Source: Escherichia coli (GTDB lineage Bacteria; Pseudomonadota; Gammaproteobacteria; Enterobacterales; Enterobacteriaceae). Taken from it: DNA of 64,000 nt. Below are positions 34,301 through 37,300 of this stretch, in pieces. Position 1 is the first letter of the stretch; each line of letters starts with the position of its first letter. Made by a program: the position numbers. The stretch lies in NCBI RefSeq assembly GCF_029227855.1, contig NZ_CP074356.1; one strand, given 5' to 3'.

Positions 34301-37300
34301 GAAGCACAGGTATTGCGTCTGGCGGCGGCGCTGGAGCAAGGTTCCAGCCATCCTCTGGCACGGGCGATCCTCGATAAAGCAGGCGATATGCAGCTGCCGC
34401 AGGTCAATGGCTTCCGCACATTGCGCGGGCTGGGCGTGAGCGGCGAAGCTGAAGGTCATGCGTTGTTGTTGGGTAATCAGGCGCTGTTAAATGACCAGCA
34501 AGTTGATACTAAAGCGATTGAGGCAGATATTTCAGCTCAGGCATCGCAAGGGGCAACGCCTGTGCTGCTGGCGGTTGACGGGAAAGCGGTAGCCCTGCTG
34601 GCTGTACGCGATCCATTGCGTAGTGATAGCGTGGCGGCGCTGCAACGCCTGCATAAAGCGGGATATCGTCTGGTGATGCTAACCGGGGATAACCCAACCA
34701 CCGCCAATGCGATCGCCAAAGAAGCAGGGATTGATAAGGTGATAGCCGGGGTGCTGCCGGACGGTAAAGCCGAAGCGATCAAACGTCTGCAAAGTGAAGG
34801 ACGTCAGGTGGCAATGGTGGGCGATGGCATTAACGACGCGCCAGCGCTGGCTCAGGCGGATGTCGGCATTGCAATGGGTGGCGGCAGTGATGTTGCCATT
34901 GAAACCGCGGCGATTACCCTGATGCGCCATAGCCTGATGGGTGTTGCGGATGCGCTCGCGATTTCCCGCGCAACGCTGCGCAATATGAAGCAGAACCTGC
35001 TCGGCGCGTTTATCTACAACAGTATCGGTATTCCGGTCGCCGCCGGTATTTTGTGGCCGTTCACCGGTACGCTGCTTAACCCGGTGGTCGCCGGAGCGGC
35101 AATGGCGCTCTCGTCGATTACCGTAGTGAGTAACGCCAACCGGTTACTGCGGTTTAAACCGAAAGAGTGATTGGTATTTACTTAATGCGTTTGTGAGATC
35201 CAGTTCTTGTTGCGCTCCTTTTATGAGTCATGCCATATAAAGTGACTGGCGCAGGGAGCGCGCAGGGGGCGGCCAATCGCCGCCGCCCCCTGCACCCCCG
35301 GGCTCTGGCGAACAAAATCGCCGCTGCGCGGTACCCTCAGCTTATCCCTTGCGGCTACCGGGTCGGGCGCGAGGTAACATATATGGACGCTCCCGGAATG
35401 CAATGCTTTCTTCAGTTATGTAATAAAACGGGTAGGTGCAGCCATATATCCGGTTTCTGATGGGATTTTTATCCCGAACCATGATGAAATCCGCCAGGCA
35501 GGTACCAATCATCCTCTACGGGCTAACTTGCCCTTGTTACCTCTCGGTGTATCCTGCCTGCGGTCTTACCTGTTTTGCCATCTTCTGAAGTCACTTGCAC
35601 CTACCAGGACGTTAACTTTTTTTCAGCACCTCGTCAGATTGACTGACCTTGTGTCAGGCGAGCTGCCGAGGTTGATATTCAGTATTGTGTGACAATATTG
35701 ACCACATGATCCTCGCTGTTTTTGCCGCCATGGCGACAACAGCTACATTGTAGTGCTTCCGCTCAAGGAGTCCCTGAAGCCAGGAATTCTCCTCAACCGC
35801 GCCGTTTCGGTTGACCCAGGCGGTAAGTGCGCGTGCGCCGTGAACCAGCAGGTATCGGAAATATCCATCTCCACGTTTGCTGATTCCTCCCAGTTGCTGT
35901 TTCCCGCCGCTGGAATGTTCCTTTGGTGTCAGCCCCAGCCATGAAGCGAACTGCTTTGCGGTACTGAATTGTCGGGCATTACCCACTGCTGCTACCACAT
36001 AAGTGGCCGTTAGCATGCCAACCCCCGGGATCTTGGCCATTCTCTGGCAGGCTTCCTGCGTTCTATACCAGGAGGCCAGAGCTTCTTCTACCTGTTTAAC
36101 TTGTTCTTCAAGTTCCCGGATATGTTTAGACTGTCTGTAGATGCTGGTTCTGACAAAGGGAGATAAACCATTTTCGCCATCCTCCAGAATGGCTGGCAGC
36201 TCACGGGTTAAATGGTTTTGTCCGGCCGCAATCGTAATACCAAACTCAGCAAGTGTGGCTCTTAAACTATTGGCACAGGCAATCCGCTCACGGATAAGTA
36301 TTCCCCGTTCAGTGTGTAACGCTAAAACGGCCTGCTGCTCTTCGGTTTTTATCTGAACAAAACGCATATTCGGACGGGTTACCGCTTCGCAGATTGCTTC
36401 AGCATCTGCTGCATCCGTCTTGTTCGTTTTCACATAAGGCTTCACATACTGCGGAGGTATGAGTTTTACCTCATGACCATAGCGGGTGAATAATCGCGCA
36501 AAATAATGACTGGATGAGCAGGCTTCCATGCCAATCAGACAAGGTTCCAGTTGAATCACAAACTGAACAAACTTAGCCCGGGTGAGCTTTTTACGCAAAA
36601 TAGTATGGCCTTCATGATCGACACCATGAAGCTGAAAAACGTTCTTTGCCAAGTCGATACCAAGAGTTGATACTTTCATGTGGACGCTCCTAATTTTTCA
36701 GGACGTATTGCAACGATCCAGTCTGGTACTTTGATACCGTAAAATCTGGAGCGTCCATCTCATTATCCCTGTAAAACGCGCCCTCAGCCCACATCCATGT
36801 GGGCTGCCCCGGCCTTCAGGGAACGCCTCGGCGATTTTGACGCCACCAACACCGGTGCAGTCTTTCGTTTCAAAGCAAAAACAATTTTTCGATCATATTT
36901 AAGCTACCACTGAACAAGCCTCATAACTCCATTTGCGCCATCCCTCCCCGCGCGCTAGCATGATATTTCACAAAGGGAGGTCGTATGGATCTGTTGTACC
37001 GGGTAAAAACGCTTTGGGCCGCGCTGCGCGGTAATCATTACACCTGGCCTGCTATCGATATCTCTCTTCCCGGCAATCGCCATTTTCATCTGATTGGCAG
37101 TATTCATATGGGCAGCCACGATATGGCTCCCCTGCCCACCCGTTTGCTCAAAAAGCTCAAAAACGCCGATGCGCTGATCGTCGAGGCGGATGTTTCCACC
37201 AGCGATACGCCTTTTGCTAATTTGCCTGCCTGCGAGGCGCTGGAAGAGCGCATTAGCGAGGAGCAACTCCAAAACCTGCAGCACATTAGCCAGGAGATGG

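Follow-up and report, generated by a model that had tools for sequence, protein, structure and literature searches.

Downstream of copA, a 64,000-nucleotide stretch of Escherichia coli DNA (RefSeq assembly GCF_029227855.1, contig NZ_CP074356.1; the whole stretch is called the window below) carries a G+C-rich hairpin that, by its sequence and position, belongs, as the most stable stem-loop, to a copy of the TRIP1 repeat, of the rare copA-ybaP type TRIP1e. This is a published element. The TRIP1 repeat was named by Rudd (1999) and typed into five loci by Li et al. 2024, all of which lie 38 to 96 bp past a stop codon (PMC10888264). The TRIP1e type, reported in 232 of 6725 genomes, is defined by distances of 38 bp from the end of copA and 124 bp to the start of ybaP (PMC10888264). 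TRIP1 has been equated with RRS, the "Replication Risk Sequence" (Pham, Cox, Goodman et al.; PMC10592627, also PMC10287960).

Wherever it is placed, RRS triggers a gap of up to ~2 kb bound by RecA and SSB, and it does so only with the G-rich strand as the lagging-strand template (PMC10287960, PMC10592627). A putative G-quadruplex (G4), 5'-GGGGGTGCAGGGGGCGGCGG-3', was located in RRS by its authors, and the G strand stops the DNA polymerases Pol I, II, and IV in vitro at the site of this 20-mer (PMC10592627). The same authors describe RRS as conditionally essential in K-12, nearly identical across genera, and conserved in its positions flanking Ter, and they cite the pilE G-quadruplex of Neisseria gonorrhoeae as the only other bacterial sequence of that kind (PMC10287960, PMC10592627). 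At pilE, too, a folding G-rich strand is proposed to create a replication-associated gap. However, pilE is a canonical quadruplex of G3 runs serving antigenic variation, whereas no TRIP1/RRS copy examined has four runs of three or more G (G3+) around the hairpin, and the hairpin is what is conserved.

Three other described systems resemble parts of this locus. TwoAYGGAY (Rfam RF01731) is a gammaproteobacterial motif of unknown function with several copies per genome, in which two neighboring hairpins with AYGGAY-type loops sit within a closing helix that its authors (Weinberg et al. 2010) noted to be very long; the published Psychromonas members also have ARGGAY loops and many copies per genome (Rfam RF01731). 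REP/BIME elements share with TRIP1/RRS an intergenic location after stop codons, a high G+C content, the formation of hairpins without U runs, and the role of target for IS110-family insertion sequences (ISs). REP units, however, are ~35 bp long and present in hundreds of copies, whereas TRIP1/RRS is one 270-bp multihelix unit with one to seven copies, and we noted no sequence resemblance between the two. Finally, the IS1111 type of IS110-family elements uses a downstream seekRNA to guide its choice of target (Siddiquee et al. 2024, PMC11187229).

A split copy of TRIP1e/RRS between copA and ybaP

The initial annotation of the window had reported a perfect 12-bp stem with an 8-nt loop and judged it not to be a typical intrinsic terminator. 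Both statements hold. The segments GCAGGGGGCGGC / CAATCGCC / GCCGCCCCCTGC form exactly this hairpin, which was recovered in the minimum free energy (MFE) and centroid folds of both strands, as RNA and as DNA; on the minus strand, which is the G-rich one, the stem reaches 14 bp, one of the pairs being G.T. No T or U run follows the hairpin on either strand, and a terminator scan gave no site within the element. The window holds two perfect hairpins whose stem is 12 bp or longer and whose loop measures 3 to 10 nt, this one included, against a chance estimate of ~64000 x 8 / 4^12 = 0.03. What the initial annotation had missed, taking the hairpin alone, is that it belongs to a multicopy repeat of ~270 bp. 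Both strands of this repeat fold better as DNA than their shuffles do (z = -4.6 and -4.9).

The repeat was delimited by a megablast search with positions 35100 to 35700 as the query against 5426 complete E. coli genomes, the genome set used throughout. The 176 bp at 35205 to 35380 recur at 90 to 96% identity, at a median of four places per genome, in 5425 of the 5426 genomes. Since homology to the uninterrupted allele of strain W13-16 and to K-12 breaks at 35380 and restarts at 36765, the repeat unit is ~270 bp long and is split by an insertion of 1384 bp. Membership in TRIP1/RRS was judged by homology to K-12 TRIP1a and TRIP1c across a unit of ~222 to 273 bp. Over its two parts (176 + 94 bp), the repeat of the window is 91% identical to TRIP1c of K-12; the uninterrupted TRIP1e allele is 93.7% identical to other copies. 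The likeness to RRS/TRIP1 thus comprises 91 to 94% identity over ~270 bp, an exact match to the 20-mer GGGGGTGCAGGGGGCGGCGG on the minus strand (made up of the hairpin's 3' arm and the adjoining CCCCC), and the TRIP1e locus itself: copA ends at 35170 and the repeat begins at 35207 to 35210, while its right segment ends at ~36860, about 124 bp ahead of the start of ybaP (36985). The IS at 35380/35381 means that the unit is not uninterrupted, which affects its integrity and not its family identity.

The intact order copA-TRIP1e-ybaP was found in 347 of the genomes, and the repeat-IS junction of the window in at most 111. In K-12, copA is followed by ybaQ instead of the repeat, which is found at yohP-dusC and aqpZ-lysO; the alx-sstT and copA-ybaP copies occur in other strains. 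Comparison with related genomes, which the initial annotation had proposed as a check on the hairpin, therefore gave a divided answer, as K-12 is without it at the copA locus and has it at those two others. The NC_000913 annotation lists no repeat features at the K-12 loci.

The gene ybaQ (K-12 b0483, a helix-turn-helix (HTH) regulator) is missing from the window between copA and ybaP, where TRIP1e fills the spacer (35171-36984). Because TRIP1e occupies the spacer that holds ybaQ in K-12, the two look like alternative alleles of the copA-ybaP intergenic region. In a contig from a metagenome-assembled genome, JAFAEO010000008.1, the left flank of the repeat, on the copA side, is of the TRIP1e type and the right flank of the TRIP1c type. 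The contig represents either a chimera assembled through the repeat or the copA/yohI rearrangement, of which Li et al. reported one occurrence (PMC10888264); its copy was used for fold statistics only.

Conservation of the fold

Copies of the repeat were gathered with a pattern taken from another part of the element, using one genome per species, and were found in Escherichia, Klebsiella, Enterobacter, Silvania, Leclercia, Pseudescherichia, Pseudocitrobacter, Raoultella, and Atlantibacter. The few nonenterobacterial pattern matches look like chance or contamination. The 69 distinct full-length copies fell into two subfamilies: A (n = 31), the E. coli/Klebsiella type, and B (n = 38), the Enterobacter type, which also occurs at asmA-yegH in E. 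coli. Their consensus fold has about ten helices, with compensatory changes at 21 of 46 pairs.

The hairpin was scored separately in each subfamily, since a joint MAFFT alignment put its arms out of register and RNAalifold missed it. It is present in nearly all of the 69 copies, in 42 distinct stem variants with a median of 12 contiguous base pairs; examples of the stem arm, each with its complement, are GCAGGGGGCGGC, ACAGAGGGCGGC, GCAGGGGGAGGA, GCCAGGGTGG, TGTTAAGGGGGC, and CAAAAGGAGGC. Double compensatory changes affect 4 of 12 pairs in subfamily A and 7 of 11 in subfamily B. Canonical cells make up 99.5% (A) and 97.6% (B) of the hairpin, compared with 94.9% and 86.2% after column shuffling, and none of 1000 shuffles reached the observed values, although these figures overstate significance because the cells are not phylogenetically independent.

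Several further helices accompany the hairpin (Table 1). The helix GCGCTCC/GGAGCGC encloses 36 nt that vary between copies and, in subfamily B, is swapped whole for CGTTCAC/GTGAACG. The strand of the closing helix at 35307 to 35322 pairs with 36830 to 36844 (13 bp, six pairs with compensatory changes in subfamily A); the IS puts these two strands 1.4 kb apart and leaves the module of hairpin and G-run intact. The loop of the hairpin at 36788 to 36803 is invariant in the 69 copies and its stem covaries.

To judge which strand folds, we used the pairs that were predicted independently from either strand. Among these, as read on the G-rich strand, G.U pairs outnumber A.C mismatches by 30 to 6. 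In addition, 38 copies have the longer hairpin on the G-rich strand and 3 have it on the C-rich strand. Together, the two counts are moderate evidence for folding of the G-rich strand. A comparison of MFE values, in which the G-rich strand was more stable in 49 of 49 copies, was judged to be confounded by base composition and was replaced by the G.U/A.C counts. Taken together, the alignments indicate that the hairpin and the other helices have been maintained by selection in base-paired form on the G-rich strand.

Rfam scans with a permissive cutoff gave a match to TwoAYGGAY in every copy tested (TRIP1a, c, d, and e, as well as those of other genera), always on the G-rich strand and mostly full-length, with 28.4 to 37.8 bits and a best E-value of 2.2e-4 in a 351-nt search; all scores lie below the gathering score of 43 bits. 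The match covers the central domain and not the hairpin at 35262 to 35293, and the hairpin at 36788 to 36803 aligns to the first AYGGAY hairpin of the model. Loop 1 is invariably AUGGAU; at loop 2, E. coli and Klebsiella have AGGGAU or AGGGAC, and Silvania and Leclercia copies have AUGGAU. The closing helix P1 has 13 to 14 bp (AAAAUCGCC / GGCGAUUUU plus extensions) with compensatory changes. TRIP1/RRS shares with TwoAYGGAY two neighboring hairpins with loops of AYGGAY type within a long closing helix, the several copies per genome, and matches that are consistent and always on one strand. It differs in its scores (28 to 38 bits vs the threshold of 43), in its second loop AGGGAU in E. coli, in an extra module of ~90 nt outside the model (the hairpin of the 35262-35293 type and a further helix), and in having a demonstrated effect at the DNA level. 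By Rfam's own criterion, the repeat is not a member of TwoAYGGAY, and we treat the resemblance as a lead. A limited literature search found no paper giving TwoAYGGAY a function or tying it to RRS, and we did not find the subthreshold similarity in the TRIP1/RRS papers cited here. In the same Rfam scans, the known multicopy toxin and small RNA repeats (Sib/QUAD, LDR, hok, RtT/tpr) gave no match. The 150-bp "RSA" repeat of the Blattner annotation was another candidate, for which only copy number and length were found; it was dropped after the identification of TRIP1.

The resemblance raises the possibility that the G-rich strand encodes a structured noncoding RNA, or the relic of one, related to TwoAYGGAY, with the hairpin as a peripheral helix and the DNA effects secondary. 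The consistent matches, the AUGGAU loop 1, the AUGGAU loop 2 of Silvania and Leclercia together with the ARGGAY loops of Psychromonas members, the long closing helix, the abundant covariation, and the excess of G.U over A.C would all fit an RNA. However, covariation and tolerance of G.T are equally expected of a structure that folds as single-stranded DNA, every score is below the gathering score, and the matches are not independent, given the relatedness of copies both within genomes and across species. In addition, our scan found no sigma-70-like promoter or terminator in or beside the element, at copA and aqpZ the only transcription nearby runs antisense to the G-rich strand, and TwoAYGGAY itself is without evidence of transcription. 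We regard an RNA origin as unlikely.

Orientation and probable role in replication

K-12 has the 20-mer at 915191 (plus strand) and at 2229193 (minus strand), in each case on the lagging-strand template of its replichore. The GC skew of the window alone is too weak to give the direction of replication. The window matches E. coli JNEC-KY178 with 100% identity; in that 5.09-Mb record, which opens with dnaA (+), the locus is at 3.70 Mb. The record is reversed relative to K-12, whose copA lies at 0.51 Mb on the minus strand. From this position, the orientation of dnaA, and the synteny with K-12, we infer that the minus (G-rich) strand of the window is the lagging-strand template, as in RRS-lysO and RRS-dusC, and thus has the orientation that triggers gaps. 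The window copy differs from these two in being a rare accessory copy split by an IS, whereas the published experiments were done with the K-12 copies, and in its distance from dif: TRIP1e lies ~1.1 Mb away (K-12 coordinates) and the two K-12 RRS 0.65 Mb away.

For the K-12 copies at lysO and dusC, the literature gives the following sequence of events. As the replisome passes, the G-rich strand on the lagging-strand template folds; the folded strand blocks DNA polymerases at the site that holds the hairpin and the G-run; and the block leaves a gap of up to ~2 kb, bound by SSB and RecA. In the same literature, conditional essentiality and an influence on chromosome topology are reported for at least one of these elements. 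The TRIP1e copy of the window would act alike if the local module of hairpin and G-run, which is intact, suffices. If the whole fold is needed, the copy is probably disabled, as the IS cuts the central domain. Our assessment is that the hairpin is probably best understood in these terms, as part of a TRIP1e/RRS copy that would block the lagging strand in the K-12 manner provided that the local module is sufficient.

Several observations weigh against this assessment. The published experiments concern the K-12 copies, and the role of the window copy is read from sequence; the IS destroys its central domain, and TRIP1e is dispensable, being intact in 347 of 5426 genomes and absent from K-12. Natural alleles of TRIP1a and TRIP1c are flipped relative to both flanks, and by synteny with K-12 the G-rich strand of TRIP1d is on the leading-strand template. 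The invariant unpaired loops (AUGGAU, ARGGAY, and GGCG) and the covariation over about ten helices exceed what a simple polymerase roadblock needs and would suggest a structured RNA or a specific binding partner. Finally, the exact 20-mer is found in 15 of 31 copies of subfamily A and in none of the 38 of subfamily B. A canonical G-quadruplex (four G3+ runs with loops of 1-7 nt) is present near the hairpin in 0 of 69 copies, only a G2-type pattern being general, and over the whole element the four-G3+ motif occurs in 1 of 69 copies on the G-rich strand and in none on the C-rich strand. Because the 20-mer is poorly kept and four G3+ runs are lacking, the mechanism that is conserved may be other than the published quadruplex. 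The alignments indicate that compensatory changes have kept the hairpin across ~10 enterobacterial genera and that the exact "G4" sequence has not been kept, a contrast we did not find in the TRIP1/RRS papers cited.

The flipped alleles of TRIP1a (aqpZ-lysO) and TRIP1c (yohP-dusC) adjoin flanks that cannot be aligned between alleles, and a flipped copy has its G-rich strand on the leading-strand template. These alleles also bear on the idea, named first in the initial annotation as an RNA stability element, that the hairpin acts at the 3' end of the copA mRNA; it would do so either as a REP-like stabilizer or as a transcription stop without a U run. A 12-bp G+C stem would hinder 3' exonucleases, as REP elements do. 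The repeat starts 37 to 40 nt past the copA stop codon with no terminator in between, and the five typed loci all follow stop codons at short distance (PMC10888264). The strand that is sense to the upstream gene, however, is the C-rich one after copA and aqpZ and the G-rich one after dusC and alx, and both orientations occur at the same locus, which is not expected of a strand-specific mRNA element. Moreover, K-12 copA works without the repeat, and the conservation of the whole 270-bp fold would be left unexplained. We find this idea very improbable, and neither "RNA stability element" nor "protein-binding site," as the initial annotation had put it, is the best-supported reading of the hairpin.

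The repeat could also be a mobile or selfish element of intergenic regions, without a host function at copA-ybaP, whose structure serves its own spread. Genomes carry from one to at least seven copies, loci vary in presence and in orientation, and whole intergenic alleles are swapped, with ybaQ facing TRIP1e and G-rich repeats facing TRIP1d (also PMC10888264). We found no terminal inverted repeats, target duplications, or clean empty site in the alleles compared; the alleles without the repeat carry unrelated sequence (ybaQ at copA, G-rich repeats at alx-sstT). The near identity across genera, the conserved positions flanking Ter, and the conditional essentiality in K-12 reported by the RRS authors stand against an element without host function, and we give this explanation little credence.

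Two further loci deserve description. In the alx-sstT spacer of K-12, unrelated G-rich "GGGAGAGGG...GGGGTGAGGG" repeats, which look BoxC-like, stand in place of TRIP1d; similar G-rich repeats flank subfamily-B copies in Enterobacter. In E. coli, a divergent TRIP1-like copy of subfamily B (~80% identity) lies between asmA and yegH, in some strains adjoining an HTH gene and a truncated RelE/ParE toxin gene. This locus is not among the five of Li et al. 2024 (PMC10888264).

The insertion sequence, reading frames, and other features

By its transposase domain, its layout, its inverted repeats, and its single fixed target, the 1384-bp insert is an IS1111-type element (criteria from PMC11187229). 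RefSeq labels the transposase "IS110 family RNA-guided transposase." The subterminal inverted repeats ATGGACGCTCC lie at 35383 to 35393 and 36748 to 36758, and the noncoding parts comprise 273 nt downstream and 85 nt upstream of the transposase gene. The IS is present in 179 of the 5426 genomes. In the six chromosomal copies examined, the one in the window and five more, at four loci (TRIP1e, TRIP1a, TRIP1c, and the asmA-yegH copy), the insertion point is identical and falls between GAGGTAAC(A/G)T and ATCC; in a truncated plasmid copy, the left junction is preceded by the same GAGGTAACAT. The IS targets the repeat at the second AYGGAY-like loop, 87 bp from the hairpin. The initial annotation had offered the hairpin as a possible IS insertion target, and the loose link it drew to the neighboring IS was sound; the hairpin, however, is not the target, because every copy examined is inserted at this one fixed site of the repeat 87 bp away.

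The only 9-mer common to the IS and the reconstituted target is GAGGTAACA, at 35535 to 35543. We estimate the chance of a junction-adjacent 9-mer match in ~360 nt of noncoding IS sequence at ~0.005, and the 9-mer is guide-like for a putative seekRNA. The element resembles IS1111-type elements with a seekRNA, such as ISEc11, in its DEDD transposase of 341 aa, its downstream noncoding region with a guide-like match, its subterminal inverted repeats plus a short extension at one end, and its single fixed target. It differs in length (1384 bp vs 1433 or 1443 bp; PMC11187229) and in its target, which is GAGGTAACAT/CC inside RRS (the slash marks the insertion point) vs GTGAAAATACTG. We found no report of an IS1111-type element dedicated to this repeat, or of RRS specificity, in the papers cited.

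The 17-codon basic open reading frame (ORF) that the initial annotation had placed at 35205 to 35258, upstream of the hairpin on the minus strand, does exist on that strand, ~27 nt away from there, and is downstream of the hairpin in the sense of that strand. Its ATG falls in the variable stretch of the repeat within the helix at 35212 to 35261, and the frame reads out into the unique flank. No Shine-Dalgarno sequence was seen before the ATG on reading the sequence. The homologous stretches in TRIP1a, TRIP1c, TRIP1d, and the flipped alleles encode unrelated short peptides or none, and because the frame is not conserved between copies we consider it a chance ORF; a protamine-like small basic protein was rejected as a candidate for the same lack of conservation. 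Comparable mechanical ORFs in the window lie at 35221 to 35403 (-) and 35230 to 35460 (+). The 100-aa RefSeq "hypothetical protein" WP_001441093.1, which lies wholly on TRIP1d in one genome, is probably a spurious call.

Table 1. Positions of the TRIP1e/RRS copy, its parts, the inserted IS, and the adjoining genes in the window
Feature	Position	Strand	Remarks
copA	32666..35170	+	upstream neighbor
17-codon basic ORF MTHKRSATRTGSHKRIK	35178..35231 (stop included)	-	chance ORF
Left segment of TRIP1e/RRS	35207..35380	- (G-rich strand)	91% identity to K-12 TRIP1c; 37-40 bp past copA stop
Helix GCGCTCC (35212-35218) / GGAGCGC (35255-35261)	35212..35261	-	from alignments
Hairpin	35262..35293	no strand	12 bp perfect, 8-nt loop; 14 bp on minus strand (35260-35295)
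RRS "G4" 20-mer	35280..35299	-	exact GGGGGTGCAGGGGGCGGCGG; overlaps 3' arm of hairpin (plus-strand numbering)
Closing helix of central domain, one strand (GGCGAUUUUGUUCGCC, G-rich strand)	35307..35322	-	consensus folds
IS target sequence within repeat, GAGGTAACATCCCTG
IS target, left half GAGGTAACAT	35371..35380	no strand	joins 36765-36772 as second loop, AGGGAU (AYGGAY-like)
IS1111-type (IS110-family) IS, 1384 bp	35381..36764	-	homology break; AT at both junctions
Guide-like 9-mer GAGGUAACA	35535..35543	- (transposase strand)	noncoding region of IS; equals target bases left of insertion
IS transposase ORF, 341 aa	35654-36679	-	Pfam DEDD_Tnp_IS110 and Transposase_20 (PF02371)
Right segment of TRIP1e/RRS	36765..36860	-	contiguous with left segment in W13-16 and K-12 TRIP1c
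Hairpin CCCAC-AUGGAU-GUGGG (G-rich strand)	36788..36803	-	invariant AYGGAY loop
ybaP	36985..37779	+	downstream neighbor

Other features of the window were noted in passing. The small RNA sroB/ChiX (37778-37861, minus strand, 81 bits in Rfam) follows directly after ybaP, as in K-12. The other perfect 12-bp hairpin, at 47930 to 47959 (arm ATGCCGGATGAC, loop of 6), is REP-like by eye. A block at ~8000 to 28000 has a G+C content of 0.59 to 0.62 and an AT skew near -0.15, against a G+C content of 0.51 to 0.55 elsewhere in the window, and by its position relative to K-12 may be an Rhs-type element.

For annotation, the named element TRIP1e/RRS takes the place of a hairpin that lacked an explanation and of a small basic ORF that was tempting to call, and ORF calls across TRIP1/RRS repeats can be flagged as probably spurious. 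RRS elements, which are conditionally essential, were described recently, and how they act is still under debate; alleles that are flipped or split by an IS occur in nature and offer natural mutants for the question of what blocks the lagging-strand polymerase. A broader proposal, which we put forward tentatively and with some doubt, is that RRS/TRIP1 is a deeply covarying unit of about ten helices with invariant loops of AYGGAY type, related to TwoAYGGAY, in which the feature selected across Enterobacteriaceae at the "G4 site" is the hairpin on the G-rich strand and not a quadruplex. If this is true, RRS would act through a specifically folded single strand, of DNA or RNA, that is recognized by some factor; one loop of this fold would have been adopted by an IS1111-type element as its dedicated target; and TwoAYGGAY motifs in other bacteria could be RRS-like elements of replication or chromosome topology.

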